Below, piece after piece: positions 17,169-47,219 of a stretch of 64,000 nt of DNA (within the stretch, counting starts at the first letter, position 1; every line of letters begins with the position of its first letter). This DNA is from an uncultured beta proteobacterium. GTDB lineage: Bacteria; Pseudomonadota; Gammaproteobacteria; Burkholderiales; SG8-41. Made by a program: the position numbers and the translations under genes. Location of the stretch: the NCBI GenBank assembly GCA_942492335.1, contig CALOEN010000032.1, forward strand, positions 71,510-135,509, written 5' to 3'. The notes under the pieces are model-generated. The model was not told where the DNA came from. It did not search any database and was given only the letters and a program-made list of their open reading frames with translations.

Positions 17169-17215
17169 AGTACACGTGCAGGTAAATAAAAAACCAATAA
17201 GAAGGAGGAAGTACG

Positions 17216-21957: not shown

Positions 21958-21960
21958 TTT

Positions 21961-22035: not shown

Positions 22036-22036
22036 G

Positions 22037-22081
22037 GGATGTAGAACTTATGTGAGCTGCGCTCACCAAAGTTCTACATCC
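22037..22081. repeat. Long stem-loop
   Basis: GGATGTAGAACTT / AAGTTCTACATCC outer stem with an inner GTGAGC/GCTCAC stem. Confidence 0.75.
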
Positions 22082-28312: not shown

Positions 28313-28616
28313 AATGAATCCTCAGGACTGTTGACGAAATGAACTGGTCATAATAAATTCGGTCTCATTTGCAGACCGACATGAATAGAACCTCTGTTAA
28401 TGAACTGAAAAACCGATATATATTAGGATTATGGTGCGTGGAACGCACCCTGCGTTGTCCTTCGAGAAGCTATTTTAAAATTCCAGCATTTACAGAGATC
28501 TCAAAACTTTGGTTAGCGTTTATGGGGCGTTTCCCTGTGCTTAATTTCAATTGGCCGCGCAGTTGTGAATTTGTGTACTAAGTACACCGCGGCATAAATG
28601 CGCCGCTGGTTTGATT

Positions 28617-28691
28617 TGCCTCCGGCGGCCCTCCGGGGGCTCTCCGAGGGGCCTCCCGGCGGGCCAGCTTTAAAAAGCTGGGCAAACAGAT
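28617..28691. repeat. Intergenic palindromic repeat, copy 2
   Basis: Same core as 21961-22035. Confidence 0.85.
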
Positions 28692-28730
28692 CGGCTCATG
28701 CCGACCTACCCGACTGATGTATTCCCGTTA

Positions 28731-29675
28731 TTATGGAATTCTCCTTCTTTCGATCCTCGTTCCTGCGATTCTGTTTCTTTCGATCTTCGTCAACCGTGTA
28801 TTCAAGGTTCCCAACTGGTCCGGTAAAGCCTGCAAACGCGGCATGGTTTTTTCGATACTGCCGACAGACCGGTTGATCCGCCTTACAACCGTGTTGGTTT
28901 CGGCTATGGCGGATTCCACAACGCTTACCCGCTTATCAATGGTATCGGTGGTGATAGTTCGAGTGGAAAAGTCATCCAGCTGTTTATCCACAGTGGTTCG
29001 CCATCCGATAATCTCCTGCTGGGATTTCGACAGGCGATCCACCTGCACCCTCACTCCTGCCAGATTGTCAAGTTCCGCTTCGTTGGCGCTTATCCGTATC
29101 ATCGTATTCTGAATGCCTGTGCTGTTGGCCTTGATCTGCTCCTGCATCTTTGCAATGCCCGGCAGCGACTGTTCAATGGTTCCGACCCGGTTGGTGATAC
29201 TGCTCACCCGACCGGACAGGATATCCATATGGCCCATTCCGCTCTCCACCTTGTCAACACGGGTAACAAGGCCATCCAGATCGGTTTTCATACTGTCCAT
29301 GTCGCCGGAGCGGGTTTCCAGGGAGTTTAAGCGCGAACGGATTTTGGGCAGCTCTGCAATGGATGTCTGGTTGCTTTTAACTCCTGTTTCAACGCCCGAT
29401 ATGCGCGTGCCGTGGGAGGCGAGCCGGTCGGGAACTCCTTTTAAAGCCGCAAGGGAAGTCATTGCCGATGACATGCCATTTTCCACCTTGTCAAGCCGGG
29501 TGCCGTGTTTCGTGATGTTGCCGTCCAGTTCCGTAAATTGTGATGTCAGGGTATTGCCCGTGTTGGTAATGGTTTCGAATTGCGGTACGAATTTTTCCTC
29601 CACCTGCGTCGCAACCTTTTTCACCAGGCCCGCTTCATCGAGAATGTCACCCTCGCGCAGGCGTTTCAGGATCAC
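28731..29675 (-). CDS. Long coiled-coil protein, probably 5'-truncated
   Basis: Repeated heptads of the type RLDKVE, RISGVE, RLNSLE, RVDKVE, RVGTIE, RVSVVE, RLTKIE. Confidence 0.75.
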   Translation of the reverse strand: MILKRLREGDILDEAGLVKKVATQVEEKFVPQFETITNTGNTLTSQFTELDGNITKHGTRLDKVENGMSSAMTSLAALKGVPDRLASHGTRISGVETGVKSNQTSIAELPKIRSRLNSLETRSGDMDSMKTDLDGLVTRVDKVESGMGHMDILSGRVSSITNRVGTIEQSLPGIAKMQEQIKANSTGIQNTMIRISANEAELDNLAGVRVQVDRLSKSQQEIIGWRTTVDKQLDDFSTRTITTDTIDKRVSVVESAIAETNTVVRRINRSVGSIEKTMPRLQALPDQLGTLNTRLTKIERNRIAGTRIERRRIP

Positions 29676-30346
29676 TGCTGGTCAGCATCGACGGCATGCT
29701 CCGCCATGACGAGCAGCGCGGCAAGCAGGGCTCGTTCGAGAAGACGTTCGGCAATTTAGAGGCCCTGCGCAAACGCTATCCGGAGCTGTCCATCACGCTC
29801 AAGTACACCATCACCCCGGTGAACTACGACGAGCTGCTCAAGTCCTATGAATTCTTGAGCGGCCATGGCTATCGCTTCACCGCCAAGATGTTGGAATACA
29901 ACCCGCATTACACCAACAAGCTCACCGGCGCGATCGAGGACCGGGCCACGGGATTCACCACCGGGCAAGTGTCCGAAATCAAGCGCCAGCTGGAGGCCAT
30001 CCTGGCTCTGGCCCCACGCGGTCGCCGTCACGCCCGGCGGGTGGCCGAGATGCAGGAGGTGCTGGATTCCCTCGATCCGCAATGGCGTCGCCCGGGGCGC
30101 TGCTCTACACCCAAGAACGTGGCCTTTCTGGACTGCGATTTGAATCTTTTTACCTGTAAGGAGTACGGCCCCGTCGTCAACCTGCAAGAGGAGCGCCTCG
30201 ACGACCTGAGCAAACGCTCGCAGTTCCAGGACATCGTCGCGCACGAACGCCAAAACAGCGGCCAGTGCACCCGTTGCACGTCGCAGATGAAACGCAGCTC
30301 GGAGGCCCAACGATGGCTTGGCTATCTCGCGTCCTGGGCGCGCTGA
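29675..30346 (+). CDS. Radical SAM/SPASM protein, C-terminal part only
   Basis: LVSIDG...HDEQRG..GSF, then SPASM/twitch cysteines (C...DCDLNLFTC...CTRC). The CxxxCxxC motif is not in the window. Confidence 0.8.
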   Translation: MLVSIDGMLRHDEQRGKQGSFEKTFGNLEALRKRYPELSITLKYTITPVNYDELLKSYEFLSGHGYRFTAKMLEYNPHYTNKLTGAIEDRATGFTTGQVSEIKRQLEAILALAPRGRRHARRVAEMQEVLDSLDPQWRRPGRCSTPKNVAFLDCDLNLFTCKEYGPVVNLQEERLDDLSKRSQFQDIVAHERQNSGQCTRCTSQMKRSSEAQRWLGYLASWAR

Positions 30347-31455
30347 GCCGCCGCAGGCGCTGGGGCGGCGTCGGCAGCGACGCCGATCTCGGCGCCGCGC
30401 TGCGCGCGGAGCTCGAGGGCGTGCTGCGTCTGAACAGCATTGGCCAACAGAGACGCTATGTGCGCGCGTTTGAGCATCGCTTCGCCGCGCACCTGGGACT
30501 GGCGGACGCGGTCGGCATGAATTCAGGCACGTCCGCCCTGTATTTCGCCCTCAAGGCCTTGGGAGTCGGTCCGGGGGACGAGGTCGTCACAGTCGCCAAC
30601 ACCTGGATCAGCACCCTGACCGCGGTGCGCGAAACCGGTGCCGAATGTCGCTTCGCGGACCTGGATCCGGCGAGCGGTCAAATGGACCCGGACGCCTTGG
30701 AGACAGCCATCACGGAACGCACGCGGGTGCTGCTGCCCGTACACATGTATGGTATCGCCGCGGACATGCCGCGTTTATCGGACATCGCCGAGCGCCACGG
30801 ACTGGCGGTGGTGGAAGATGCCTGCCAGGGTATCGGCGCGCACTGTGGCGGGGCCCCCGCCGGCACCTTTGGTACCCTGGGATGCTTCAGCTTTCACGCC
30901 AACAAGCTGGTCGGCGCACCGGCCGACGGTGGCATGGTCGTCGGCCGCGATCCGGCCCTGTTGGCCCGGGTGCGGGCCATGGCCGAGGCCAACTGGAGCG
31001 GGGACATGCATGAGGTCCAAACGCGCATCCCCAGCCGCCTTCCGCCCTTGGCGATCCCCGTGCTCAAGGCCAAGCTCGCCCGGCTTGATGAGCGGGTAGC
31101 AGCGCGTAAGGCGCAATTCGAGGTCTATCGGGACGGCTTGGCCAACGCCGCCGGCCTGGATCTGCTTGCTCCGGGCGCCGGTGCCGTCGCCTCCCATCGT
31201 TGTTGCGTGCTGATCGCGAGCGAGCCGCGCATGGCCGCGCATGTCCTCGGCCGCGCTGGTTGGGTGGCCGAGCCCATGTACAAGCAATCCGTGGCCCTGC
31301 TGGAATCCTTGCTAGCCCGTGGCATCGACCTTCCGGTGACCGAGCGCCTGTTGCGTCGTCAGCTGTTGCTCCCCATCGGTCCAGAGGTCACCACGGCGCA
31401 GCAGCATGCCGTGCTCGCCGCACTATCCAGCCTTTGCGTGAAACACGCGGCGTAA
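30313..31455 (+). CDS. DegT/DnrJ/EryC1/StrS aminotransferase
   Basis: NSGTSAL, GVGPGDEV, VVEDACQ, FSFHANK (PLP lysine). GGAGG lies 7 nt before ATG 30313. Confidence 0.9.
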   Translation: MAWLSRVLGALSRRRRWGGVGSDADLGAALRAELEGVLRLNSIGQQRRYVRAFEHRFAAHLGLADAVGMNSGTSALYFALKALGVGPGDEVVTVANTWISTLTAVRETGAECRFADLDPASGQMDPDALETAITERTRVLLPVHMYGIAADMPRLSDIAERHGLAVVEDACQGIGAHCGGAPAGTFGTLGCFSFHANKLVGAPADGGMVVGRDPALLARVRAMAEANWSGDMHEVQTRIPSRLPPLAIPVLKAKLARLDERVAARKAQFEVYRDGLANAAGLDLLAPGAGAVASHRCCVLIASEPRMAAHVLGRAGWVAEPMYKQSVALLESLLARGIDLPVTERLLRRQLLLPIGPEVTTAQQHAVLAALSSLCVKHAA

Positions 31456-31460
31456 CCCCA

Positions 31461-33143
31461 GTGTTGAACTTGCTTTCGGTATCCCGTTTGCGGCTGGCTC
31501 ATGCCGTCGGGCTCAGCCTGGTGGCCGGGCTGTGCAACACGGCCTTGTTGTATCTGCTCAGCCATGCTCAAGACGGGCATTCGCCCTATGTCGCCGTCGG
31601 CTTGTTCAGCCTGGCATTAGTCGGGTTTTTCGTGAGCCAACGCTGGCTGCTGCACAGCATCGCACGACAATCGGAACACGTATTACGTCAATTGCGCGTG
31701 GACTTGGCGCGACGTGTGCTGCGCACGCGCTACGCCGAGCTGGAGGAGGTGGGACGCGCCGAACTGTTGTCAGCTCTGACTCACGACGCCACGGTGCTGA
31801 GCCAGTTCTGGCCACTTCTGGTCAACCTGCTGCTGGCCGCCGCTACCATCGTGTTTTCGCTGATCTATCTCGGTCTATTGGCGCCGCTGGCCTTCGGCAT
31901 CACGGTCGCCGCCCTGCTAACCGGAATCGCCTTGGTGCTGTTCATCGGCCGCCGATCCCGCGCCTTGCTGGAGAGCGCGCGCACCCGCCAGGATCTGTTC
32001 TTGGCCATCGTTGACGACCTCTTGGACGGTGTGAAGGAGCTCAAGATCAGCCAGGGGCGGCGCCATGATCTGTATCGTCGCGAGCTGACCGAGACCACCG
32101 ATCTCTATCTTGACGAGAGTACCCGGGCCAAGCTGGCCTCGCACGATGCGGCATTGGCTGGTCAAGGCGTTTTCTTCATACTCGCCGGGCTGGTGGCCTT
32201 CATGCTGCCGCACGCCCAAATCATCGACACGGAAGCCCGCTTCGCCTTCCTGCTGGTGCTGCTCTATCTCATGGGGCCGCTGACCCGCATTACGGGTAAT
32301 CTACCCCTGATCAACAATGCACGTGTTTCGGCGCGCCGCATCCTCAAGCTCCGCGAGCGCTTGGCCGCTGCGGTCGAGTTGAATTGCGACGCCGACCAGG
32401 CGCCGACGCGCAGCTGTTTTTCCGCCGATTGGCAGCGGCTACACCTCGCGGACGCTCGCTATGTCTACGCCGATCAGACGGGGCGCAGTTTCTCCCTAGG
32501 GCCCCTCAACCTGGACATCCGGCGCGGCGAATGCTTGTTCGTGGTCGGTGGCAACGGTTCCGGAAAATCCACTCTGGGCAAGGTGCTCACGGGGTTGTAT
32601 CTGCCCACCGGCGGGGTCATCCGCGTGGGCGACATCGAGGTAACCGCGCACAATCAGGACGAGTATCGGCAACTGTTCAGCGTGGTTTTCAGCGATTTCC
32701 ATTTGTTCGAACGGCTCACCGGGCTCACCGCGAAGGCGCGCGCCCGGGCTCCGGAATTACTGGTGGACTTGGGCTTGCCCGTGGACTTGTTGGCGAGTCC
32801 GGACAGCGCACGTTTTTCGGCCCTTTCCAAGGGGCAGCAGCGACGCCTGGCCCTAATCCTGGCCTATCTGGAGGAACGCAGCATTTTCTTCTTCGACGAA
32901 TGGGCGGCGGATCAGGACCCGGTCTATCGCGAGCGATTCTACCGCGACATCCTGCCCAGTTTGCAGGTGGCAGGCAGGACCGTGGTAGCGGTCACCCACG
33001 ACGACCGTTTTTTTCACCTCGCCGACCGCGTCATCGAACTGGACAAGGGCCGGATCGTCAATTCGGATCAGGATGGCGGACCCGGGTGCGCCGGCACGCC
33101 AGCGTTGCGACTGCGCGCGGAAAACAATGGGGAGGCGGCTTGA
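31461..33143 (+). CDS. Cyclic-peptide export ABC transporter (SyrD/PvdE/YojI family)
   Basis: Six-TM domain, LLDGVKELK, GGNGSGKST, LSKGQQRRLAL, FDEWAADQDP, THDD. Confidence 0.92.
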   Translation: MLNLLSVSRLRLAHAVGLSLVAGLCNTALLYLLSHAQDGHSPYVAVGLFSLALVGFFVSQRWLLHSIARQSEHVLRQLRVDLARRVLRTRYAELEEVGRAELLSALTHDATVLSQFWPLLVNLLLAAATIVFSLIYLGLLAPLAFGITVAALLTGIALVLFIGRRSRALLESARTRQDLFLAIVDDLLDGVKELKISQGRRHDLYRRELTETTDLYLDESTRAKLASHDAALAGQGVFFILAGLVAFMLPHAQIIDTEARFAFLLVLLYLMGPLTRITGNLPLINNARVSARRILKLRERLAAAVELNCDADQAPTRSCFSADWQRLHLADARYVYADQTGRSFSLGPLNLDIRRGECLFVVGGNGSGKSTLGKVLTGLYLPTGGVIRVGDIEVTAHNQDEYRQLFSVVFSDFHLFERLTGLTAKARARAPELLVDLGLPVDLLASPDSARFSALSKGQQRRLALILAYLEERSIFFFDEWAADQDPVYRERFYRDILPSLQVAGRTVVAVTHDDRFFHLADRVIELDKGRIVNSDQDGGPGCAGTPALRLRAENNGEAA

Positions 33144-33934
33144 TGCGACGTTTCCTGTTCCGCCTGCGGCTGATCCTGATGATACCCATCGGCGTGCCCG
33201 CCGGGCTCTATTACAGCCTCGTCGGACGGCGATTCCCTGCGCAGCAACGCTGGCTGCGACTAAACATACCGCGGTTCATCGGACGACTGTTCCTGGCCCT
33301 GTACGGCATACATCCGCGGATTAGCGGCCGGGAACATCTGAGCATCGGGCAAGCGCGCGGCGTGGTGGTGTTCGCCAATCACACCAGCCGTCTGGATCCC
33401 TATGTGTTGTTTGCGCTCCTGCCCTTTCCCTACAAGTCCTTCTGGTCCACCAAAGCCCATGTGACCAGTGAATCCATCGGCTTCGCGCGGCGCTATGGAG
33501 AGGTCTTCGATCTGTTCTTCGTGCACGATAAGAAAGATCCGCGGCGTACCGCCAAGGAGTTCCGTCGCGCTGCCGACTATGTGCGCAGCGGTCACGCCCT
33601 GTCGTTTTTCCCGGAGGGACAGTTTTCCGCCTCCGGCAAGCCCGGCGACTTCGGCGTTGCATGCGCCAAGCTGGCGCTGGCCGCAAAGGCGCCCATCGTG
33701 CCCGTGGCCATCGCGGGGACGGCGCCGTTTTTCGAGGAGCGCGGTCGATTGCGCCGCGGTCCTGTCCAAGTCCTTGTCGGCCCGCCGATCGACACCGATG
33801 ACTTCGGCCCGCGCGACGCTCAGGCGCTTACCCGGCACGTGGAAGCTGTGGTGCAGGCCATGCACGCCGGGATCGGTGCAGCTGCGAATCCCGCACCGAG
33901 CACTGGCGCGCGAGCGGAGTCCGGCAATCCATGA
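33143..33934 (+). CDS. Lysophospholipid/PlsC-family acyltransferase
   Basis: NHTSRLD (HX4D), FFPEG, PIVPVAI. Confidence 0.9.
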   Translation: MRRFLFRLRLILMIPIGVPAGLYYSLVGRRFPAQQRWLRLNIPRFIGRLFLALYGIHPRISGREHLSIGQARGVVVFANHTSRLDPYVLFALLPFPYKSFWSTKAHVTSESIGFARRYGEVFDLFFVHDKKDPRRTAKEFRRAADYVRSGHALSFFPEGQFSASGKPGDFGVACAKLALAAKAPIVPVAIAGTAPFFEERGRLRRGPVQVLVGPPIDTDDFGPRDAQALTRHVEAVVQAMHAGIGAAANPAPSTGARAESGNP

Positions 33935-35427
33935 AAATCGCCTATCATGCCTTCGAAACGGGTCGGGCCAGGGGTGGCGCCTTGTACTTCTATTCCGAGG
34001 TTTCACGCCTATTGGGGGGCCTCCCGCCCCGGACCGCCACGCTTCGGCCCCACGATTTCTTCGATCTGGTGCAGTGGGATTCGTCCCGATTGCGGGCCTT
34101 CGTCGCCGATCTCGGACCCGACGACGTGCTGGTCAGCAACGTCGGGCCCTATGCTCATCTCTATCACTATCTGCGCGAGCGCTATGGTGGCCGCTTCCGC
34201 ATCGTGCGCGACTCGCGCACCAGTTCCTGGGCCGGCTTTTTTCTGCAAGAGGCGTTGGCCGGGCCGCTGACGCGCTCCGCTGATCTGATGTTGTTCCCGT
34301 CGGAGTTCTGCCGCCAGTATTTTCTGCACCTGTTTCCCCGATCCCTGAATCAGGACAACACCGCGGTCTGCTATCCATTAGCGACCTCGTTCCCAGAGTC
34401 CTTGCCACCACGCGGCCCCCGACACGGTTTCGAATTGGGCTATATCGGCCGGGTATCCGATGACAAGAACTTCGATCAAGTCCTCGACGCCTTCGTGAAA
34501 TTGGCGGCGAGTAGCGATGAGCGCATGAACCTGCATGTCGCCGGGGCGATCGATCCCCTGTCACGTTTCGGAACCCCGTGGAGCATGCGCCGGTTCCTGC
34601 GGCGCCACGGCGTGGCTGGTGATCGCCTTGTCTATCATGGCCACATCCCCTATGTCGGAATTTGGGGCTTCTTGCGCGGGCTCGACGTGTTCTTATTCCC
34701 AGCCGTGGCAAGCGTCGAATCACTGGGCCGGGTCTTGCTCGAGGCCCAGTACGCCGGCGTGCCCGTGGTGGCTGCCCATTACGCCGCCGCAGCTGAGATC
34801 CTGCCGGCCGGGAACTTGATCGAGCCGATCTTTCGGAGCGGCGAAGACCTCGCCACCATCGCTTCCTTTTCTCTGGGGCGGGTGAACGAGACCGCGTTGG
34901 TCGAAACCATCGCCCATGCGCGCGTGGGAACGCCCCGGATTCATGCGGCACGCTTTCGCCCGCAGACCTATCTGGACCTGGTGCTCGGCAGGCAGCAGCC
35001 GCAGGCGCCCGTAGCCGTTTCTTCCCAGACGCGCGGCTTCATCGACGCGGCACGGGTTACCGGTCTGCTTCCGGACCTGGCTGCGGAGGAAGTCGTGGCC
35101 TTGGGCGAGGCACTCTGGCCGGCCTTCGCGCGCTACACCGACAATCGCTTGACGGCGCGGCTGCGCGGCTTGTTAAGCGCCCTGCCACCGCAGCCGGGTT
35201 ATCCGCGGCGACGCGCCCAACACCTGGCGCGCTTTGCGCGGCCCGCGACTCGCCCGGATCTAGGAAATGCGCGAGAACACTGCTGGGCCGCGGGTTTCGA
35301 TCCAATCTTGCGCCTCGACCAGGCCATTCTGGCCCGGGCCTTCAATGCGAGGGCTCGCGCAGCGGCATGCCCCGTTGACCCGCAACCCGCGATCTCCGAT
35401 TCCACATTCGCTAACCGAGGAGGCTAG
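33931..35427 (+). CDS. Glycosyltransferase family 4 (GT-B)
   Basis: GYIGRVSDDKNF, ESLGRVLLEAQYAGVPVV. ATGA overlap with the previous gene. Confidence 0.85.
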   Translation: MKIAYHAFETGRARGGALYFYSEVSRLLGGLPPRTATLRPHDFFDLVQWDSSRLRAFVADLGPDDVLVSNVGPYAHLYHYLRERYGGRFRIVRDSRTSSWAGFFLQEALAGPLTRSADLMLFPSEFCRQYFLHLFPRSLNQDNTAVCYPLATSFPESLPPRGPRHGFELGYIGRVSDDKNFDQVLDAFVKLAASSDERMNLHVAGAIDPLSRFGTPWSMRRFLRRHGVAGDRLVYHGHIPYVGIWGFLRGLDVFLFPAVASVESLGRVLLEAQYAGVPVVAAHYAAAAEILPAGNLIEPIFRSGEDLATIASFSLGRVNETALVETIAHARVGTPRIHAARFRPQTYLDLVLGRQQPQAPVAVSSQTRGFIDAARVTGLLPDLAAEEVVALGEALWPAFARYTDNRLTARLRGLLSALPPQPGYPRRRAQHLARFARPATRPDLGNAREHCWAAGFDPILRLDQAILARAFNARARAAACPVDPQPAISDSTFANRGG

Positions 35428-35431
35428 TGTC

Positions 35432-36091
35432 ATGCGCTCGACTATACGCAGTACGTTCCATTGCAAGGCGGTTGGCCCGAACCGGCATGTCATCGGCCAG
35501 GCGGATCCTCGGCTGATCGCCACCGCCTTGGCCGAGATCGGCTCGGTAGAGACTTGGCCAAGGGTGAAGCGCGACGACCACCATATCCTCGATCAGGGCC
35601 GTTCTCTGATCATGCGCGACGAGCGCCATCGGGACAGCGAGCTTCGCGGCCGCTTTCCAAGTATCGAGAAACTGGTCGATCAGGTGCTCGATCTGGACTT
35701 CGGTAGCATTCCGGCCAAGATCGTCTGCGCGTATCTACCGCCGGGTAAGGTCATTAAGCCGCACAAGGACGGAGGCCAGTATTACACCTTCCATAACCGC
35801 ATTCATGTGCCGCTAGTGACCAATTCGCAAGTGACCATGACGGTGGACGGCGAGCAGTTCGCAATGGATGTTGGCGACATTTACCTGTTCCAGAACTTAC
35901 GCCGCCATGCCGCCAGCAACGAGGGTACGGAGGGCCGCATCCATTTGATCGTGGATGTACTGGATCCGCGGTATTCGGTGGACCTTTACCATCGCCTGTG
36001 GTGGCCGCTGATGTTGAATTTTCTCGGCACGGCATCGGCCTATCGCTGGCTGCGCTATCGCGCCGTCGAGCGCGATCCGGCTTTGGCCTGA
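35432..36091 (+). CDS. Aspartyl/asparaginyl beta-hydroxylase family 2OG-Fe(II) dioxygenase
   Basis: LPPGKVIKPHKD, RIHVPLVTN, N...HAASN, RIHLIVD. GAGGAGG RBS. Confidence 0.88.
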   Translation: MRSTIRSTFHCKAVGPNRHVIGQADPRLIATALAEIGSVETWPRVKRDDHHILDQGRSLIMRDERHRDSELRGRFPSIEKLVDQVLDLDFGSIPAKIVCAYLPPGKVIKPHKDGGQYYTFHNRIHVPLVTNSQVTMTVDGEQFAMDVGDIYLFQNLRRHAASNEGTEGRIHLIVDVLDPRYSVDLYHRLWWPLMLNFLGTASAYRWLRYRAVERDPALA

Positions 36092-36132
36092 GTGACGCGC
36101 ATCACAGCACCGCGCGCGCCGCAGGCTCGAAC

Positions 36133-37305
36133 ATGAACATCCTACATTTGACCTTCACCTATCCGGACGCGATCACGCCCCGGACGACGCTGGCCATCGA
36201 GCGTCTGATCGCCAGCGCTGAAGGTTTCGCCGAAAATCACTGCGTCAGCTTGCACAACGGTTTCCCGCGTGTTCCCGCCGGTTCGACGCATCACGCCGAC
36301 CACACGATCGTGGTGGCCTGGGGGCCTCCCCTGCGCCTGGGGCTGCGTTGGTTCCTGGGGCGCTGCCGGCGCGTGCTGGAGGCTAGCGGCCTCGACTTGA
36401 CGCGCTTCGACCTGATCCACGCCCATTGTCTGACCCGTGAGGGCCTGCTCGCCGCGGCCCTGGCGGCACGCCTGGACCTACCTTATTGCCTATCCATACG
36501 TGCCACGGATTTTCAAATGTTGGCGCTCAAACCCTACTTGCATCGGCGCTACGAGCACATATTGCGCGGGGCGCAGCGCATTGCCGTCATCGCCCCATGG
36601 CTGGCCGAGCGCCTGCGCGAATCCTATGCCGCGGCCTGGGACGACGCGTTGGAGGAGAAACTGGTGTTGCTGGGCAACGTGGTGGACGGCGAGCCACGGA
36701 CACGCACGGCGCACAACGGACGCTATGTCATGCCTATCGCGATCAACAAGAGTCAGCTCAAACGCAAAAACGTTGCGCGCACGCTCAAAGCCATTGCCGA
36801 ATTGTCCGCCCGCGGCCAACGCATCGAGCTGGACATTCTTGGCGACGGCAGCGGCACCGCACGGGTCGGCGCCGAACTTCGACGACTCGGCTTGCAGGAG
36901 CAAGTGCGCCTGCCGGGTCATGTGCCGCATGCGATCATGCTCGACCGGCTGGCCGATTACAAGGCATTGTTGCTCTGCAGCTATCCGGAAACCTTCGGGC
37001 TGGTCTACCTGGAGGCGCTGAACGCCGGAATCCCCATCGTCCACGCCCGCAACACGGGTGTGGATGGCATGTTCACGGATTTCGCCGTCGGCATCGCTGC
37101 CAACCATAAACGCAGCGATGCCATTGCCGCGGCGCTGATGCGCATGGAGGCCGATTTTGGCCGTTACAAAGCTGAAGTTGCCCGCTTGCAGGCGGCCGGT
37201 GGCTTGCGTGCCTTCAATTCCGATCGCTTTGCCGCGCGCTTGCACAACGAACTGTATGGCGTGACGGCCGCACGTAACGCGGGAGCGATGCCGGCATGCT
37301 CCTGA
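36133..37305 (+). CDS. Glycosyltransferase family 4 (GT-B)
   Basis: DLIHAH, ETFGLVYLEALNAGIP. Confidence 0.9.
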   Translation: MNILHLTFTYPDAITPRTTLAIERLIASAEGFAENHCVSLHNGFPRVPAGSTHHADHTIVVAWGPPLRLGLRWFLGRCRRVLEASGLDLTRFDLIHAHCLTREGLLAAALAARLDLPYCLSIRATDFQMLALKPYLHRRYEHILRGAQRIAVIAPWLAERLRESYAAAWDDALEEKLVLLGNVVDGEPRTRTAHNGRYVMPIAINKSQLKRKNVARTLKAIAELSARGQRIELDILGDGSGTARVGAELRRLGLQEQVRLPGHVPHAIMLDRLADYKALLLCSYPETFGLVYLEALNAGIPIVHARNTGVDGMFTDFAVGIAANHKRSDAIAAALMRMEADFGRYKAEVARLQAAGGLRAFNSDRFAARLHNELYGVTAARNAGAMPACS

Positions 37306-37943
37306 CGCTGCGCAATCCGTTGCGACAACCGGCCAAGCTTCTGTACGGGCGTGTGCGCCACTTTCTCGGGCCCGCACGGCCTAAGGTGTTCGGTATCGGC
37401 CTTTCACGCACCGGGACCAAGAGCCTCCATCAGGCCTTGCGCGTGCTCGGTTATCACAGCGATCATTTTTCCACCCAGATTCTGCGCCTGCGCGACGGGC
37501 ATTTGGACTTGCACCTGAGGCGCGCCGAGGCTTTCGACGCCCTCACGGACGTCACCGCCGCCTATTTTTTCCGAGAACTGGACCGTGCCTTTCCCGGATC
37601 GCGCTTCGTGCTGACGCTGCGCGATCCGGAGGCTTGGCTGCGCTCCTGCGCGCGCCATTTCCCGCCACTGCAACCGGGTCGATGGCCTCATGGGGTGTCG
37701 AAGGTGCTGCTGCTGCGCGAGGCCGTATACGGCGGGGAGAGCTTCGACGCCGAACGATTTCGCGCCGCCTACGCGGCCCATATGGACGCGGTCCGGACCC
37801 ATTTCGCCCGCCGCCCCGGCGACCTGCTCGAGCTCGACGTCACCCGTGGCGACGGTTGGTCGCCCCTCTGCCGTTTTCTCGGCATGGACATACCCGGGCA
37901 GCCCTTTCCCTGGGCTAATCGCGCCGGACCGAATTCGCCATGA
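37296..37943 (+). CDS. Sulfotransferase family protein (P-loop type)
   Basis: KVFGIGLSRTGTKSL, FVLTLRDPEAWLRS, GWSPLCRFLG, PFPWAN. Confidence 0.88.
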   Translation: MLLTLRNPLRQPAKLLYGRVRHFLGPARPKVFGIGLSRTGTKSLHQALRVLGYHSDHFSTQILRLRDGHLDLHLRRAEAFDALTDVTAAYFFRELDRAFPGSRFVLTLRDPEAWLRSCARHFPPLQPGRWPHGVSKVLLLREAVYGGESFDAERFRAAYAAHMDAVRTHFARRPGDLLELDVTRGDGWSPLCRFLGMDIPGQPFPWANRAGPNSP

Positions 37944-38028
37944 GCACCGAGGGACAGGCCAGCCCGCTCCCACGAATTCGACCATGATTCGTCAACTTCA
38001 AGCAACTTCCCGAGCGGGATCAACAACC

Positions 38029-39000
38029 ATGAACGATATCATCGAACCCTTGCGAAAACAGATTTGGGACAGGCTGGGCAGGGACACCATTCATGCCCTG
38101 CACCGGGAGAATCTCATCCTCGATTACTCCGCGCTGGCGGGCCTGTTCGCGCTGTTCGCCGGATTGGCCGCCGCCCTGGCGACCCTGCCGCTCGGTCCGC
38201 TGTGGCTGCTGTGCCTGATCTTGCAGGGTTTTCTGATCCAGATCTTTGCGCTGGCCAATCACGATCTGTTCGTGCATCGGCGAGTCGTTCCCGCACCCTG
38301 GTCCTATGCGTTGAGCGTTGCGCTTACAACACCGGCCCTGCTCAGCGCCACCCGCTATCATTACGGCCATCATGCCCATCATCGGCACCTGGGGGGCAAC
38401 GGCGATTCAGAGCTGTTCAAGATCGACATCGACACCACTTGGAGGCGCGTGCTCTATTGCACCTTTCTCGGCATCAAGCTTACGGAGGCCGGACGCTTCA
38501 CACGTCGGCAGCGCAAGATCGATCCGCCCATCATTCGCCCCGACATGGTCGAAGTACGCCGGCGCATTCGCTTCGAACGCCATCTGGCGACGGTGTGGCT
38601 GCTGGCCATCGTCGCCTTGGCCTTTGTCTGGCCCAATCTGATGATCTTCGGCTATCTGTTGCCGCTGTTGTTAGTTACACCCATAGCCAATACCCTACGC
38701 ACCATCCTGGAACACTCCGAGTTCGAGCCCGCGCAGGCATTCTACATCAACTGCTTTTACCGCACGGGCTGGCTCACGCGACCGCTGTTTTTCTGGGACA
38801 GCGGCGATTGCCACCTGGTGCATCACATTTTTCCGCGCATCCCCTTCTATCGTATCGGCGCGGCGCTCGAGCACATGCGTCCCATATTCCTCGAGGCCGG
38901 CGTCGTGGAACGTCGCAATCTTTGGGTCCTGCTTTGGCAATGGCTAATGCGGCCACATCCTTATCGGACGCCGCGACAGCAACTCGTTGCCGCCGACTGA
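38029..39000 (+). CDS. Fatty acid desaturase family protein
   Basis: Three His boxes: HDLFVH, HYGHHAHH, HLVHH. Alternative start at 37984. Confidence 0.9.
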   Translation: MNDIIEPLRKQIWDRLGRDTIHALHRENLILDYSALAGLFALFAGLAAALATLPLGPLWLLCLILQGFLIQIFALANHDLFVHRRVVPAPWSYALSVALTTPALLSATRYHYGHHAHHRHLGGNGDSELFKIDIDTTWRRVLYCTFLGIKLTEAGRFTRRQRKIDPPIIRPDMVEVRRRIRFERHLATVWLLAIVALAFVWPNLMIFGYLLPLLLVTPIANTLRTILEHSEFEPAQAFYINCFYRTGWLTRPLFFWDSGDCHLVHHIFPRIPFYRIGAALEHMRPIFLEAGVVERRNLWVLLWQWLMRPHPYRTPRQQLVAAD

Positions 39001-39015
39001 GCCGCGAGCCATCCG

Positions 39016-40902
39016 ATGTGCGGCATCTGCGGAATCCTCGGCTTGGACGGCGCGCCGGTTTCGGGGCAAGAGATTCGGAGCATGTTGGCTTGGATGCGCC
39101 ATCGTGGTCCCGACGATCAAGGCTTGTTTCAAGCCCCGGGAATCGGTCTGGGCTTCGTGCGCCTGAGCGTCCTCGACCTGTCAACGGCCGGTCATCAGCC
39201 CATGCACAGTCCCGACGGGCGCTACGTCATGGTTTACAATGGCGAGGTCTACAACTACTTGGAGCTGCGAACGCTCTTGCAGGCGCGCGGGCACCGCTTT
39301 CATTCGGGAACGGACACCGAGGTCGTGCTCGCGGCCTTCACGGAATGGGGATTGGCTTGCCTGCATCGCTTCAACGGGATGTTCGCTTTCGCCGTTTACG
39401 ACAAGCGTGATCGCCGCCTGGTATTGGTCCGTGACCGCTTCGGCGTCAAGCCCCTGTATTTCGCCCGCATCGGTCAGCGCTTGGCCTTCGCATCGGAGAT
39501 CGCTCCCTTGCTGCAATGGCTGCCGCATCGGCGTATGCAGCCCCAAGCGGTATTCGATTACTTGGTGCACGAGCGCATGGATCACACATCCGCGACGTTC
39601 TTCCAGGACGTTGTTAAGCTCGGTCACGGCCATAGTCTGCAAGCCGCGGACGGCCGAGTCACCACGTCGCGTTGGTATCGTCTCCGCGACCGTTTGCAGG
39701 AGCCACCGGCAGACGCCGAGGCATTTTTGGCGACCTTCGAGGACGCACTGAGGCTGACCCTGCGTAGCGATGTTCCCTTGGGGGTTTCTCTGAGCGGCGG
39801 CCTCGACTCCAGCAGCATCGCCTGTATGCTACATGATCGCCTGGACGTGCCAGACGTGCAGACGTTCTCGGCGGTGTACGGACGAGGCCACCCCGGCGAC
39901 GAATCCGCCTACTTGGACCTGCTGTCGCCTCGCCTCGCGTCCATGCACTTCATACAGCCCAGCGCTGAGACCCTGATGGCCGACTTGGATCAGTTTCTGG
40001 CCGCGCATCAAGAGCCCGTACCGCGGACCGGGCCCTATGCCCAATTCAAAGTCATGCAACTAGCTCAGGGCCGAGTCACCGTCACCTTGGACGGGCAAGG
40101 TGCGGATGAGATGCTGGCCGGATACAAACAGAATCTCGGCTTCTATTTTCAGGGCTTACTGCGTGCCGGGCGTTACCGTGAACTAGCCCACGAGCTCCGC
40201 CATACCCTGGGTGGCGACGGGGCACGCGGGGCGCTCGCCGCGGGTCTTGCGGGTATGATGCCAAAGCGGTTACAGGCGGATCTATTGCGCCGGCAAAGGC
40301 CTGAGGTGAGTGCTGGCTGGTTTACCGAGTACGCGGCCAGCAGCCCGGTTCCACGGCTGTTGCTGGACGCGCCGGACCTGCGCTCGGCGTTGCAGGCTAT
40401 GTTGGAGCACAAGCTGGAGCATTTGCTCAAATGGAGTGACCGCAACAGCATGTGGTTTTCCATCGAATCACGCGTGCCATTTCTGGATCACCGCCTCGTC
40501 GAACACACCCTGAGCCTGCCCGACCACTGGATCATTCGCCACGGATTGAGCAAGTACATCCTGCGCGAGGCCATGCATGGCCTTCTGCCCGAGGCCATTC
40601 GCACCCGCCGGGATAAGATCGGCTTCGGCACGCCGGAGAACGACTGGTTGCGCCGACCGGCGTGGATCGAGCTGACCCGCGAGGCCTTGAATTCGGGTTT
40701 TTACCGCGATTATCCGATCATCGACTTGACCGCCGCACGGCACATTCATGACCGGCATCTGGCCGGCCGGTGCAATGCCGCGCGCAAGATCTGGAAATGG
40801 ATAAACCTCTATCTCTGGCACCGGCGCTTCCTGTCTCAAGCGCCACCCATGCCCGAACCGCAAGCCGTGACGATTCCGCTAGAAAGCACGACAGGTCCAT
40901 GA
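39016..40902 (+). CDS. asnB: Asparagine synthase (glutamine-hydrolyzing)-like amidotransferase
   Basis: MCGICG Ntn start, HRGPD, NGEVYNY, LSGGLDSS, DGQGADE, ESRVPFLD. Confidence 0.96.
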   Translation: MCGICGILGLDGAPVSGQEIRSMLAWMRHRGPDDQGLFQAPGIGLGFVRLSVLDLSTAGHQPMHSPDGRYVMVYNGEVYNYLELRTLLQARGHRFHSGTDTEVVLAAFTEWGLACLHRFNGMFAFAVYDKRDRRLVLVRDRFGVKPLYFARIGQRLAFASEIAPLLQWLPHRRMQPQAVFDYLVHERMDHTSATFFQDVVKLGHGHSLQAADGRVTTSRWYRLRDRLQEPPADAEAFLATFEDALRLTLRSDVPLGVSLSGGLDSSSIACMLHDRLDVPDVQTFSAVYGRGHPGDESAYLDLLSPRLASMHFIQPSAETLMADLDQFLAAHQEPVPRTGPYAQFKVMQLAQGRVTVTLDGQGADEMLAGYKQNLGFYFQGLLRAGRYRELAHELRHTLGGDGARGALAAGLAGMMPKRLQADLLRRQRPEVSAGWFTEYAASSPVPRLLLDAPDLRSALQAMLEHKLEHLLKWSDRNSMWFSIESRVPFLDHRLVEHTLSLPDHWIIRHGLSKYILREAMHGLLPEAIRTRRDKIGFGTPENDWLRRPAWIELTREALNSGFYRDYPIIDLTAARHIHDRHLAGRCNAARKIWKWINLYLWHRRFLSQAPPMPEPQAVTIPLESTTGP

Positions 40903-41810
40903 AGACTCACGACATCGCGGTATCGGTCATTGTCCCGACCCACGACAGCCGTCCCGGCCTGGACGCCTTACTCGGATGGCTCCGCGCGCAAACGCTGTCC
41001 AATGAACTGTACGAGGTCATCGTGGTCGATGACGGCTCTCGGGACGGTAGTGCGGAGATGGTGCAGCGCGAACACCCCTGGGTGCGCCTGATCCGACAGC
41101 GTCGCCGTGGTGCCTATCACGCGCGCAGGACGGGCGTGGAAGCCAGTCGCGGAGCCATGTTGGCATTCACCGACGCCGACTGCGTTCCAAGCGCCGATTG
41201 GCTGGAGCGAGGACTGGCCGGGGTGACCGATGAGCGGTTGGACCTCGGTGCCGGGCGTGTCGATGTCAGCATTGCAAACCCCGGTTCGGTAGTCGAACGC
41301 TACGATGCGCGCTTCAATCTGAAACAGGCATATTATGCGACCCGGGCCGGCTTCGGCGTGACCGCGAATCTCTTCGTCTCGCGCGCCGTTTACCAGCGCG
41401 TGGGCGGCTTCAATGCAAGCCTGTATTCGGGCGGGGATCAAAAATTCTGTCACGATGCGATCACCGCAGGCGCTCGCCTGGGTTATCTGCCCGCAGCGGC
41501 CGTCAGCCATCCGGCGCGGCGCACTCGGCGAGAACTGATGCGCAAGACCGTTCGCGTCGCCAAGGGGCGCGCCCAGGCTTTTCCAAGTCCGCATTACTAC
41601 TTCCCTCGGCTGCTGTCGGCCTTGCCCGCGGCCTATGGCGACATGCGATTCGCCAGTGAGCCCATGGGCTTCAAGCTGCGCTTCATTGCGCTTCATTACT
41701 GGCTCGAGGTTATCCGTATCGCCACCTACACGGGCTCGCGTCTGCAGCGATTCGCGGCGCCCGCTAGCGAGCCAGTGATCGGTGAGCGTCCGCCGAACTA
41801 CGAGGATTGA
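40899..41810 (+). CDS. Glycosyltransferase family 2 (GT-A)
   Basis: VSVIVPT, VVDDGSRD, FTDAD, GGDQ. Confidence 0.92.
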   Translation: MKTHDIAVSVIVPTHDSRPGLDALLGWLRAQTLSNELYEVIVVDDGSRDGSAEMVQREHPWVRLIRQRRRGAYHARRTGVEASRGAMLAFTDADCVPSADWLERGLAGVTDERLDLGAGRVDVSIANPGSVVERYDARFNLKQAYYATRAGFGVTANLFVSRAVYQRVGGFNASLYSGGDQKFCHDAITAGARLGYLPAAAVSHPARRTRRELMRKTVRVAKGRAQAFPSPHYYFPRLLSALPAAYGDMRFASEPMGFKLRFIALHYWLEVIRIATYTGSRLQRFAAPASEPVIGERPPNYED

Positions 41811-41873: not shown

Positions 41874-44800
41874 TTAATTGGTATCGACCGATGTAGGCTG
41901 AGGCACCTTGACCCGGAACAGGATCGCATACAGCGTCGGCACGACGATCATGGTCAGGATCGACGCGAAGCCCAGCCCGGCCATGATGGTGATCGACATG
42001 TTGACGAAGAAGACGTCCGTCAGCAGCGGAATCAGGCCCAGGATGGTGGTAGTCGCCGCCAGCAGTACCGGGCGTAGACGGCTGACCGCCGAATCCAGGA
42101 TGGCCGTGTAGGGCTCCTTGCCCTCCTCGATCTGCTGGTCGATCTCCTCGATCAGGACGATGGCGTTCTTGATCAACAGGCCCACCAGGGACAGGGCCCC
42201 GAGCAGGCCCATGAAGTCGAAGGCATGGTTGGTGCCCAAGAGCCCGGCCGTGATACCGATGATGGCGAGCGGCACCGTGAGCCAGATGATCAGCGGCTGG
42301 CGCACCTTGCCGAAGAGCAGGATGGTGATCAGGATCATCATCAGGAAGCCCCCGGGCAGGGCCGCGGCCAATGCGGTTTGCGCGTTTTGACTGTCCTCGT
42401 ACTCCCCGCCCCACGCCAGCGAATAACCCGGGGGCAGCTCCATGGCCTCGATCTGGGGGCGCAGGCGAACGAACACGGGCGTGGCCAGCTCGCCGGTTGG
42501 ATTGGCCGATGCGATGATGGTCTGAATACGATCACGCCCGCGCACCACCGTGTTCTCCCAAACCGTCTCGAATCCCGAGATCACCTGGGCCGCCGGGATG
42601 CCCTTGGCCAGCACCGGGCTCCAGACCTGGATGTCCTGGATGTTGTCGATGTCCGCTCGCTCCGCGTCCGGCGCCCGCCCATAGATGGGCAGCAGGCGCA
42701 CGCCGTCGCGGTACAGGCCTACCGGCGCGCCCTCGTAGGCGTACTGCAAGGCACTGGACAGATCGTCATAGGTAATACCCAGCTGCCGACCCACCTGCTC
42801 ATTGAACACCGGCCGCACCAGCTTCACCGGCTCGCGCCAGTCGTCGCGCACATCCTTGGTCTCCGGATCGGCGCGCAGTATCGCCTTGGCCTGATCGGCG
42901 AGCTCACGCAGCACCTTGGGGTCGGGACCGCTCAGGCGTGCCTCGATCTTGGAATCCCGCCCGGGACCGATGCGCAGGGACTTGAGGATGGGGTCCAGAT
43001 GGGGCATCCCATCCCGCATCATGACGTCCACCGCGTCCCACACCGCCGGGATCTGGTCCCGGGTCTCGGTCTGCACGATGATCTGGGCGTACACCGCGTC
43101 CTGATCCCTGGGGTCGTACACCAAGGTGAATCGCTGGTGAGGGCCGCCCACCACTGACGTAGTCTGGACGACACCCGGCTGCTCGCGCAGGAACTCGGCA
43201 ATCGCCAGGGTGTCGTCGCGGGTCCTGCGGATATCCGTACCCTGGGGCTCCCAGATGTCGACGAAGAACATCGGCGTGTTGGACTCGGGGAAGAATGCCT
43301 GCTTCACCGATCCGAAGCCGATCACGGCCAGGACGAACATGCCTACGACGATCCCCAACGTCATCCAGCGAAAACGAATCGCGGTTGCGACAAAACCGCG
43401 ATAGACCTTGAAGAAACTGCCCCCGTAGGGGTCCTTCTCTTCACCGCTGCCCGCGTCCTTGTCCGGCTTGAGCAGCAGGGCGCAGAGCAAGGGCGTCGTG
43501 CTGATGGCGGTGACCCAGGACAACAACAAAGAGTAGAGAATGACCCAGAACAGGGAGTTGGCGAACTCGCCGGTCGAATCCGGAGAGAGCCCGATGGCAG
43601 AGAAGGCGACGATGCCGATGATGGTGCCGCCGAGCAAGGCCCAGATGCTCTTACCCACCGTCTCACGTGCCGCTATGGCCGGGTCCATACCCGCGCGGAT
43701 ACGGATCAGCATCCCCTCCGCCACCACGATGGCGTTGTCCACCAGCATACCCAAGGCGATGATCAGACCGCCCAGGGAGATGCGCTGCAGCTCGATGCCG
43801 GCCTGTGCCATGAACATCAGGGTCCCGGCCACCGTGATCAGAAGCACGGCGCCGATGATCAGCCCCACCTTCACCCCCATGAACAGCAGCAGGACGATGA
43901 TGACAATGGCCACCGCCTGGCCGACGCTGACAATGAAGCCGTTGACGGATTTATCCACCTCCACTGGCTGGTTGTAGATCTGTTGCAGATCCATCCCCAG
44001 GGGGATATTCGGAGTCAGCTCCGTGAGACGACGGCCGACGGCTGCACCCACCGCTACCACGTTCTGACCGCCGAGCATGGAGATGCCCAAGGTCAAGGCA
44101 GGCTTGCCGTTGACGAAGAAGTAGCCCTTCGGCACCTCGACATACGAGCGTTTGATCTCCGCAATATCGCGCAGAAAGATCAGCTTCTTGTCGTCGGAGC
44201 CGATGAGTACGTCCCCGATGGCCTTGACCGACTGGAAGGCGCCGGTGGGCTTGATGCGCAGGTACTGGTCCTCGACCCGGACGTGTCCCGCGTCCGCCAC
44301 CACGTTCTGGGACTGGAGGATGTTGCCGATACGCTCCAAGGGGATGCCGAGCTCGGACAGCCTGGAACGGGACATCTCCAGATAGACCACCTCCTGCTGC
44401 TCGCCGCCGATGGAGATCTTGCGCACGCCGGGCACCAGCACCAGCTCGCGCTTCAGATAGTCCGCCGTATTCCACAGGTCACGCCAACTGTAGCCATCCC
44501 CGGTGAGGGCCACATAGACCCCATAAACATCTGCGAACTCATCGACCACGATGGGCTTCTGGGCCCCGGGGGGGAGCTTGCTCTCCATATCCGTGATCTT
44601 GCGCCTGAGCTCGTCATAGATGCCCGGAAAGTCCTCGGGTTTGTACTTGTCCTTGAACTGGATTAGGATATCCGACATCCCGGGACGGGAGATGGACATC
44701 TTGATGTACTTGATCTGCTCCATGCGTTGGATGGCATCCTCCACATGGTAGGTGACCTCGTCCTGGACCTCTTGGGCCGATGCGCCGGGGTAGTAGGTAA

Positions 44801-44942: not shown

Positions 44943-44959
44943 TTTGCAGGGCTCCCGGC

Positions 44960-46237: not shown

Positions 46238-46529
46238 CAAGAGATTCCTGTGGTGAAATTTGGGCAAAACGTAACTAATCGGCTACCCAGTACGGCGGGA
46301 CTGCTGAATAGTTTCTCAACACATTTTGGGGTCTCCAAAGGAGAGAAGTCTTGCTCTCCCCTCTAGTCGGCATCCGTAAACCGCGTTTTCGGACGCTGAT
46401 CTGAATGGTTGCCGCAAAGCCAGCATATTTTAGCAGACCTTGCCGCATTGGCCTTGCATGATATGGGGTCTGCCGCACGCGGCGGAAAGCGACCTGATTA
46501 CCCTCGATGCAGCATCAATTCCCTGCCCG

Positions 46530-46886: not shown

Positions 46887-47219
46887 TTACTCGAAAACCG
46901 GGGCGAGCTTCGCCAATACTTCATCCATGATCGCTTGCGGCACGCTTTCCAGCTTGCGGGCGTTGCGCGAGGCCAAATCGATGGCGCGGGGTTGGTCACA
47001 CCGGACAACGCCCGTTGTGCTTGTTCCTGCCCCCATCAGCGACACGGCAAAACCGGCCGTGCGGGCGAAGCTGCCTCCACTGGTGATTGGCAGCACGACT
47101 GGCGTTTTCGTCAGTCGGTTAAAGGCGGACGGGGACACGACCAGCACCGGCCGCGTCCCTTGTTGTTCATGGCCTGAAGTCGGGTCCAGTGAGACTAGGT
47201 AAATATCGCCACGCTCCAT
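46887..47219 (-). CDS. PemK/MazF family toxin
   Basis: MERGDIYLVSLDPTSGHEQQGTRPVLVVSP. Confidence 0.95.
   Translation of the reverse strand: MERGDIYLVSLDPTSGHEQQGTRPVLVVSPSAFNRLTKTPVVLPITSGGSFARTAGFAVSLMGAGTSTTGVVRCDQPRAIDLASRNARKLESVPQAIMDEVLAKLAPVFE

Follow-up and report, generated by a model that had tools for sequence, protein, structure and literature searches.

A tailoring and export operon in a betaproteobacterial contig that was probably severed from a rare family of NRPS/PKS-NRPS gene clusters

Which molecule does a tightly packed operon of eleven tailoring and export genes decorate in an uncultured betaproteobacterium, and can the locus make it at all? The operon lies at positions 29675-41810 of a 64,000-nucleotide stretch of contig CALOEN010000032.1, the whole of which we call the window, and the first-pass annotation had proposed an acylated, sulfated lipid or peptide as its product. 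We consider it likely that the operon has been cut from its assembly line and that it represents one half, for tailoring and export, of a gene cluster of the nonribosomal peptide synthetase (NRPS) or polyketide synthase (PKS)-NRPS kind, belonging to a rare and uncharacterised family. The synteny of its relatives argues for such a half and against both a lipopolysaccharide (LPS) or capsule locus and a self-sufficient glycolipid pathway, and since the operon forms the downstream half of NRPS/PKS-NRPS clusters in these relatives, the scaffold would be an acylated nonribosomal peptide. From the earlier proposal, the tailoring and export operon stands, while the complete glycolipid pathway does not.

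The eleven open reading frames (ORFs) are all located on the plus strand and overlap or are closely packed, the distances at the successive junctions being -34, +5, -1, -4, +4, +41, -10, +85, +15 and -4 nt. They encode, in this order, a radical S-adenosylmethionine (SAM) enzyme, a DegT-type aminotransferase, an ABC exporter, a PlsC-type acyltransferase, a glycosyltransferase of family GT4 (GT4a), a hydroxylase, a second GT4 enzyme (GT4b), a sulfotransferase, a desaturase-family enzyme, an AsnB-type amidotransferase and a GT2 glycosyltransferase. Profile searches against Pfam and NCBIfam upheld each of these family assignments, together with the coordinates, as the first-pass annotation had given them for one eleven-gene tailoring run. 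The ten genes from DegT onward are complete; the radical SAM gene is a fragment.

The evidence placing the operon comes from its relatives, mostly metagenomic contigs, whose contexts we derived from gene calls with Pfam annotation and from a tblastn map. GT4a is the signature gene and best marker of the cluster family. It is very rare: 8000 candidates drawn from 5.8 billion proteins were scored, and 42 of them passed as homologues at E ≤ 1e-5. The radical SAM family is very rare as well, a search of 5.8 billion clustered proteins yielding 16 members at E ≤ 1e-10. Contig L003 carries all eleven genes with 50-64% amino acid identity, directly behind an NRPS ending in A-T-C-A-T-TE (A, adenylation; T, thiolation; C, condensation; TE, thioesterase), and with this gene order repeated in full by an unrelated contig, chance falls far short of explaining the arrangement. 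Downstream of GT2, L003 continues with an 83-amino-acid ORF, DUF6136, an ABC ATPase, a second radical SAM/SPASM gene, MbtH and an efflux adaptor. In L005, nine of the eleven genes are found (47-53% amino acid identity), the locus of this contig and of L006 lying between an NRPS (C-A-T-TE) and a PKS composed of FAAL, acyl carrier protein (ACP), ketosynthase (KS) and acyltransferase (AT) domains. Both contigs show a fusion of the hydroxylase with GT4b (L005 11449-13323; L006 1764-3674), and L005 additionally fuses AsnB with GT2 (14054-16909). That these genes belong together, which the first-pass annotation had left to a synteny comparison, is thus borne out by eleven of eleven genes in L003 and nine of eleven in L005.

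More reduced or rearranged forms of the cluster support the same placement. An NRPS is followed by radical SAM-DegT-PlsC-GT2-GT4a in L040/L042 and L043, with a hydroxylase, a second radical SAM/SPASM gene and another sulfotransferase after GT4a in L040/L042. Assembly GCA_041445565.1 has a PKS/NRPS immediately before the radical SAM gene, together with PlsC, GT4a, GT2, a phosphopantetheinyl transferase (PPTase), an ABC gene, DegT and a second NRPS. MbtH, an ABC ATPase, GT4a, an ABC exporter, PlsC and a methyltransferase are shared by L039 and L049, the former with an NRPS in addition and the latter with a PPTase, a UDP-glucose 6-dehydrogenase and a MacB-type efflux system, and in L044/L045 a three-module NRPS-TE precedes GT4a. 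The minimal form is found in the cultured strain Burkholderia sp. FERM BP-3421 (L001 1200-10001; CP117781.1, 2.04-2.06 Mb), consisting of an ABC exporter, a 2-oxoglutarate oxygenase, a PKS-NRPS and GT4a; the 2933-residue PKS-NRPS has the architecture ACP-KS-AT-ACP-aminotransferase-C-A-T-PlsC, in which PlsC replaces the thioesterase or reductase, an unusual terminal domain. Taken across the loci, a megasynthase stands directly upstream of the radical SAM gene in all five that have DNA there, and beside either the radical SAM gene or GT4a in L001, L003, L005, L039, L040, L043, L044 and GCA_041445565.1, while the adjacency of radical SAM gene and DegT is kept in L003, L005, L040 and L043.

The cluster in L039 adjoins two integrase genes and conjugation genes (TraG/TrwB-like, TraI; 15462-21422), and these neighbours suggest that clusters of the GT4a-linked family travel on integrative conjugative elements; regarding a plasmid origin, PLSDB contained no GT4a relative. 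Distant GT4a relatives of 32-41% identity, always paired with GT2, are found in housekeeping contexts (L038 10001-12288, L007, L008, L010 and L012). The pair in L038, a gammaproteobacterial metagenome-assembled genome (MAG), lies behind an arginine-biosynthesis operon (argG...argH) with no NRPS near. Among species-representative genomes there was no close GT4a relative, the best reaching 39% identity and most being GT4a+GT2 pairs with none of the other cluster genes. These distant pairs may serve a different role.

Compared with this family, defined by synteny, the window contains the colinear orthologous gene set and lacks the megasynthase and a full-length radical SAM gene. In tblastn searches of the 64-kb window, no significant match (best E ~0.04) was obtained for NRPS/PKS domains (C, A, TE, KS, AT and aminotransferase), MbtH, DUF6136, the radical SAM N-terminus or the second radical SAM gene, and the DNA upstream of 29675 in the window is unrelated. 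The radical SAM reading frame (29675-30346; annotated ORF 29696-30346; plus strand) starts at 29675 with the residues LLVSIDG, corresponding to column 147 of the family alignment, so that it encodes ~223 of ~360 residues, is ~140 residues short and has no CxxxCxxC motif. The 15 homologues, without exception, measure 325-367 residues and have a CNLDCWMC motif upstream of the start of the window copy. The fragment has no Pfam match and matches weakly the NCBIfam models of PapB and of twitch and SPASM radical SAM enzymes. Its C-terminal domain contains four conserved cysteines, which we read as a single twitch-like auxiliary cluster and not as a full seven-cysteine SPASM domain. The first-pass call of a radical SAM/SPASM enzyme is therefore right in the radical SAM family but has to be narrowed to a C-terminal fragment of twitch-like type, and the gene as assembled is predicted to be non-functional.

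The cut does not affect this gene alone. On the far side of the breakpoint and outside the pathway, a divergent gene on the minus strand (28731-29675) retains its 3' two-thirds, encoding 314 residues of a coiled-coil protein. Its homologues have ~530-580 residues, residues 2-300 of the window copy aligning to residues 245-543 in an exhaustive HMMER search, and its profile matches are exclusively of coiled-coil type. Both genes thus lose their 5' parts at the same base, 29675|29676. We found no repeat, tRNA or insertion sequence (IS) end at the junction, an Rfam scan of the window returned one tRNA only, and exact-protein look-ups of the window proteins returned no second contig spanning 29675. 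Judged from the sequence, the same picture would result from a deletion, from a large inversion or from a chimeric join in the assembly, and because the break truncates the divergent neighbour as well, it would go back either to a mosaic genomic island that underwent deletion or inversion, or to such a join. With no scaffold genes in the window and with the genes on both sides of the junction cut, the locus as assembled cannot make the product of the family. In this bacterium it is either a relic or an assembly problem.

The remaining ten genes retain their catalytic motifs, i.e. SFHANK, Walker A/B and signature, HX4D, two EX7E, HxD, three His boxes, Cys2 with SGGLDS, and DxD. The pyridoxal phosphate (PLP)-dependent aminotransferase of the DegT/DnrJ/EryC1 family (30313-31455, plus strand; E 2e-78) carries the SFHANK lysine motif and overlaps the radical SAM gene by 34 nt; its best PDB matches are the glutamine:scyllo-inositol transaminase 7b0d (E 6e-55) and then the transaminase 2oga, which we take to be DesV. 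It is followed by a cyclic-peptide-export ABC transporter of SyrD/PvdE/YojI type with fused transmembrane and nucleotide-binding domains (31461-33143, plus strand; ABC_membrane and ABC_tran), passing TIGR01194 with 353 bits against a curated cut-off of 286.2 and having the motifs GGNGSGKS, LSKGQ and IFFFDE intact. The PlsC-type acyltransferase (33143-33934, plus strand) shows the HX4D motif, and its best named model, OlsA, scores far under its cut-off. The retaining glycosyltransferase GT4a (498 residues; 33931-35427, plus strand) possesses a conserved C-terminal helical extension of ~150 residues. Its AlphaFold2 model (pLDDT 90.8) shows a generic GT-B fold with the LPS glycosyltransferase 5n7z, MshA, BshA and SenB as nearest structures, and structure comparison found no match for the extension.

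Downstream of GT4a lies the Fe(II)/2-oxoglutarate hydroxylase of the Asp_Arg_Hydrox (LpxO/OlsC/AspH) family (35432-36091, plus strand), assigned by Pfam/NCBIfam and with marginal PDB matches only, followed by GT4b (36133-37305, plus strand) with its EX7E motif. The Sulfotransfer_4-family sulfotransferase (37296-37943, plus strand) presumably depends on 3'-phosphoadenosine 5'-phosphosulfate (PAPS), as it has TGTKS where the PAPS-binding loop is expected; in the PDB it is related to SgdX2 and to the Schistosoma oxamniquine sulfotransferase. The membrane di-iron desaturase/hydroxylase of the FA_desaturase family (38029-39000, plus strand) has the His boxes HDLFVH, HYGHH and HLVHH. Its start was set at 38029, with an alternative ATG at 37984 and an independent gene call of 323 residues; its top NCBIfam match, a weak one, is the arginine hydroxylase GntB, and a PDB search found no solved relative. 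The glutamine-hydrolysing AsnB-type amidotransferase (39016-40902, plus strand) begins with MCG, providing the Cys2 nucleophile, contains the SGGLDS PP-loop and passes TIGR01536 with 401 bits against a cut-off of 267.1, a family membership that does not imply asparagine as the product. The operon ends with the GT2 glycosyltransferase (40899-41810, plus strand; DDGS and DAD motifs), which converges on a resistance-nodulation-division (RND) pump gene 63 nt away. No sigma-70-like promoter was detected on the plus strand between ~28.4 and 41.8 kb, which is weak evidence.

What would a complete cluster of this family make? Domain content and gene order are observed in the relatives, and from these all enzyme roles are inferred. 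The megasynthase would produce a short N-acylated peptide by means of a FAAL or PKS loading region, at times with a beta-aminotransferase domain, NRPS modules and a final thioesterase. For the closest relatives, adenylation-domain codes tentatively predict that the peptide ends in Ala and then Tyr or Phe: read against a GrsA reference, the last-module code is DASTVAAVCK or DAATIAAVCK (Tyr/Phe-like) in L003, L005, L040 and L044, and the penultimate code is DLFNNALTYK-like (Ala-like). The code in the Burkholderia enzyme is DILQAGLVWK (Gly-like). GT4a, GT4b and GT2 would then glycosylate the scaffold, and the fusion of hydroxylase and GT4b in L005/L006 suggests that the hydroxylase creates the hydroxyl group used by GT4b. 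PlsC may add a second acyl chain, for which OlsA offers a family precedent, the di-iron enzyme may desaturate or hydroxylate an acyl chain or a residue, the sulfotransferase would transfer sulfate to a hydroxyl group, and the PvdE/SyrD-type ABC pump would export the product.

The most unusual step concerns the amino sugar. The best PDB match of the radical SAM family profile is BlsE (E 2.7e-17), within the core only (profile positions 26-199). The substrate of BlsE is cytosylglucuronic acid, in which the sugar is already bound to its aglycone (PMC3715490). By analogy, the radical SAM enzyme may oxidise or dehydrate an attached sugar to a keto sugar, which the translationally coupled DegT enzyme would transaminate. 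The solved structures nearest to this DegT enzyme belong to transaminases of keto-inositols and keto sugars. Later work on BlsE reportedly describes a radical diol dehydratase giving a keto sugar for a transaminase. Formation of the amino sugar after glycosylation by the radical SAM/DegT pair would be a coherent reading, and it would explain why no nucleoside diphosphate (NDP)-sugar dehydratase is present. AsnB would amidate a carboxylate, probably on the sugar added by GT2; in view of the AsnB-GT2 fusion in L005 and the UDP-glucose dehydrogenase in L049, the sugar transferred may be a uronic acid that is amidated afterwards. This leads to a model according to which the products of complete relatives are sulfated lipopeptide glycosides that are exported and form a new class. 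The amino sugar would be built on the scaffold by a BlsE-like radical SAM enzyme and DegT instead of being brought in as an NDP-amino sugar, and AsnB would then amidate it in concert with GT2; we hold this model to be tentative and, as a whole, rather improbable. More speculatively, the ten intact genes of this bacterium might still be at work on a scaffold that comes from another place in its genome. The term aminoglycoside-bearing, used for the product in the first-pass annotation, is over-specific, as an amino sugar made by the radical SAM/DegT pair is the most that can be argued for.

The surroundings of the operon are mosaic, comprising a foreign block, an efflux cassette, a MazF gene, a transposase gene and frameshifted genes. 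The block at 17155-29675, on the minus strand, is compositionally foreign, its tetranucleotide correlation with the cluster being r = 0.67, whereas the composition of the cluster agrees with the host DNA (r = 0.94 against window positions 1-17154). The block has a lower GC content at third codon positions (0.57-0.64) and contains five large ORFs, i.e. one of 1624 residues with an M23 peptidase domain, others of 1133, 648 and 301 residues, and the truncated 314-residue coiled-coil protein. We considered a prophage and do not call the block phage, as PHROGs gave weak tape-measure and coiled-coil matches only, with nothing convincing in Pfam, and IMG/VR and INPHARED gave no match. At 13900-16420 (minus strand), frameshifts disrupt a creatininase-family gene, spread over two frames, and an accB-accC-like pair, in which AccC is spread over three; either they are pseudogenes or the assembly is locally in error.

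On the other side of the operon, the RND pump and membrane-fusion pair (41901-46238, minus strand) is 92.7% identical at the nucleotide level to L050 8704-13043 (CALOFV010000109.1, another MAG), the conserved genes flanking it in L050 being only 71-74% identical and differently arranged. It looks like a recently transferred efflux cassette, and L050, considered as a place to look for an intact neighbouring cluster, was uninformative since the pump stands there in a different context. Further along, at 46887-47476 (minus strand), a MazF/PemK-type toxin gene (110 residues) directly follows an 85-residue ORF without Pfam match, which is likely to encode the antitoxin. An unusually long 770-residue protein (49373-51685, plus strand) has a CofD/YvcK-type (2-phospho-L-lactate transferase family) domain over residues 76-463, and an IS200-like Y1 transposase-family gene (257 residues; 53539-54312, plus strand) is located between LptF/G-family and SLT_2 lytic transglycosylase genes.

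How the break arose decides whether the severed state of the operon is biological. If the junction, and the junction only, is an assembly chimera, the real genome would hold a whole radical SAM gene behind an NRPS and thus a complete functional cluster; we regard this as unlikely, though as the most serious of the alternatives. The source contig is known from one NCBI record, close relatives are named as MAGs, the GlnRS of the host being 85% identical to proteins under the name 'MAG: Burkholderiales bacterium', and the exact-protein look-ups returned no independent contig reproducing the junction. Both genes are cut at exactly the same base in the absence of a repeat, IS end or tRNA, which fits an artificial join, but the missing repeat also speaks against one since assemblers usually mis-join at repeats. 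The DNA left of the junction differs in composition and the efflux cassette demonstrates sequence shared across genomes nearby; yet the cluster matches positions 1-17154 beyond the foreign block, so the contig returns to the same genome, as it would around a real island. The other genuine-looking scars in the window, i.e. the frameshifted accC and creatininase genes, and the absence of the accessory genes following GT2 in L003 (DUF6136, ABC ATPase, second radical SAM gene and MbtH) likewise argue for a real event, and given the mosaic neighbourhood it is plausible that a plastic island was rearranged here. The flawless preservation of the ten other genes favours a chimera, and it belongs to several points that weigh against an operon cut from its assembly line as we describe it. 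Their full length and intact motifs would be unexpected for an old relic, and would therefore point to a very recent event, an assembly artefact or continued use with the core elsewhere in the genome; moreover, the absence of core genes applies to a 64-kb window of a 139.7 kb contig. Distant GT4a+GT2 pairs below ~41% identity lie without an NRPS, e.g. after argH, so that GT4a relatives are not obligatorily tied to NRPSs. The adenylation-domain codes, extracted against a GrsA segment and interpreted with a code table, give tentative residues. As the BlsE match covers the core only and the peptide-modifying enzymes SkfB and YydG are the next PDB matches of the profile, the radical SAM enzyme could act on the peptide. 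No family member has a known product, and the product is an inference throughout.

Three further explanations concern the kind of pathway. The operon might be a stand-alone, NRPS-independent pathway decorating a membrane lipid, such as an ornithine-lipid-like or lipid-A-like aminolipid, with sugars, a hydroxyl group, an acyl chain and sulfate, which we judge very unlikely. OlsA and LpxO/OlsC are indeed the best named models of the acyltransferase and the hydroxylase, but their scores are far from the cut-offs (OlsA 49.5 versus 300 bits, LpxO 27.2 versus 500, OlsC 16.3 versus 450); these scores and the absence of OlsB led us to reject an ornithine-lipid pathway, and the stretch contains neither OlsB nor a lipid-A gene. 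A desaturase-family enzyme is present and the ten genes are intact although the core is missing, as a pathway of this kind would have it, yet the first gene would be a non-functional fragment and the exporter is of the curated cyclic-peptide type and not an MsbA-like lipid flippase. The distant GT4a+GT2 pairs occur outside NRPS contexts, while every relative sharing more than these two genes is attached to an NRPS/PKS. By comparison, a conventional LPS O-antigen, capsule or exopolysaccharide locus is extremely improbable and largely refuted by synteny. The three glycosyltransferases, DegT, the AsnB-type amidotransferase and the ABC transporter would be common finds in such a locus, and the XrtA/PEP-CTERM amidotransferase and EpsE models match partially; all polysaccharide-specific models nevertheless remain under their cut-offs. 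Profile searches found no Wzx, Wzy, Wzm/Wzt, Wzz, initiating phosphoglycosyltransferase, NDP-sugar dehydratase or other NDP-sugar synthesis family among the operon ORFs, and the earlier statement that Wzx, Wzy, Wzm, Wzt and a nucleotide-sugar dehydratase are missing holds for the ORFs of the whole stretch. The neighbours in the relatives are NRPS/PKS, MbtH and PPTase genes, confirming the first-pass view that this is not a standard O-antigen or capsule locus. A cluster for a ribosomally synthesised peptide with post-translational modifications (RiPP), i.e. a ribosomal peptide modified by the radical SAM enzyme, glycosylated and exported, has next to no probability either. The best NCBIfam match of the fragment is the ranthipeptide maturase PapB, but with 33 bits against a cut-off of 340, and 29675-41810 contains neither a precursor-like ORF nor a RiPP recognition element (RRE); we thus rejected a PapB- or SkfB-type maturase. 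SkfB and YydG among the nearest solved structures, the peptide-type exporter, and the 83-residue ORF with the second radical SAM/SPASM gene downstream in L003 would suit a RiPP, whereas a radical SAM gene that is translationally coupled with a sugar-type aminotransferase and stands behind an NRPS thioesterase in every relative would not.

Reading the operon as the severed half of an NRPS/PKS-NRPS cluster makes it, in kind, the tailoring region of a glycolipopeptide cluster, which is a known kind. Its enzyme set is unusual for a nonribosomal peptide, given the radical SAM/DegT pair, the hydroxylase-glycosyltransferase and amidotransferase-glycosyltransferase fusions and the sulfotransferase, and we found no cluster or product with this combination described in the literature, in agreement with the earlier statement that none was known. 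A complete relative could provide a new glycolipopeptide scaffold and a second example of post-glycosylation amino-sugar formation by radical SAM chemistry. The cluster family therefore is a good target for genome mining, while this copy is severed and calls for caution, as a genome-mining pipeline would report a rich tailoring operon here although it has no core and its first gene is truncated. To our knowledge, the PKS-NRPS with its aminotransferase domain matches none of the five known clusters of Burkholderia sp. FERM BP-3421, so the GT4a locus of this strain appears to be an orphan cluster. This strain is a cultured and genetically tractable carrier of the minimal version, making the question of the product testable. 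It has 29 clusters, of which five have known products and 24 were orphan in 2023 (PMC10589681).

Comparison with known systems relates the single enzymes of the operon to several pathways. With the ornithine-lipid and lipid-A enzymes it shares families, OlsA being a PlsC-type O-acyltransferase that adds a piggy-back chain and OlsC and LpxO being PF05118 enzymes that 2-hydroxylate such chains; it differs from them in scores far under the cut-offs, in lacking OlsB and lipid-A genes and in the NRPS context of its relatives. The exporter resembles PvdE, SyrD and YojI as a fused half-transporter above the TIGR01194 cut-off, without the pyoverdine or syringomycin synthesis genes that belong to the PvdE and SyrD systems. 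The pathways of blasticidin S and of the gougerotin type, the latter leading to a 4-amino-hexuronamide, are paralleled by a radical SAM family whose nearest solved relative is BlsE and whose gene is coupled to that of a sugar-type PLP aminotransferase, and the fusion of AsnB to a glycosyltransferase in L005 and the UDP-glucose dehydrogenase in L049 extend this likeness; a transaminase takes part in making both blasticidin and gougerotin, the second of which has a carboxamide. Unlike in these peptidyl-nucleoside pathways, the similarity is confined to the radical SAM core at low identity, nucleoside genes are absent, the aglycone would be a lipopeptide, and the window copy has no SAM-binding domain. 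Another parallel is provided by the NRPS/PKS-NRPS glycolipopeptide clusters, from which this window differs in the absence of the megasynthase. We know of no such cluster in which a radical SAM/DegT pair occurs together with a PF05118 hydroxylase, a PF17784 sulfotransferase, AsnB, PlsC and three glycosyltransferases. As in the clusters for occidiofungin/burkholdine, herbicolin A and hassallidin, a megasynthase would make an acyl peptide that is decorated by glycosyltransferases and hydroxylases of the cluster and exported by a dedicated ABC pump, and the beta-aminotransferase domain in the loading PKS of the Burkholderia relative is found likewise in lipopeptide synthetases of the iturin/mycosubtilin type.

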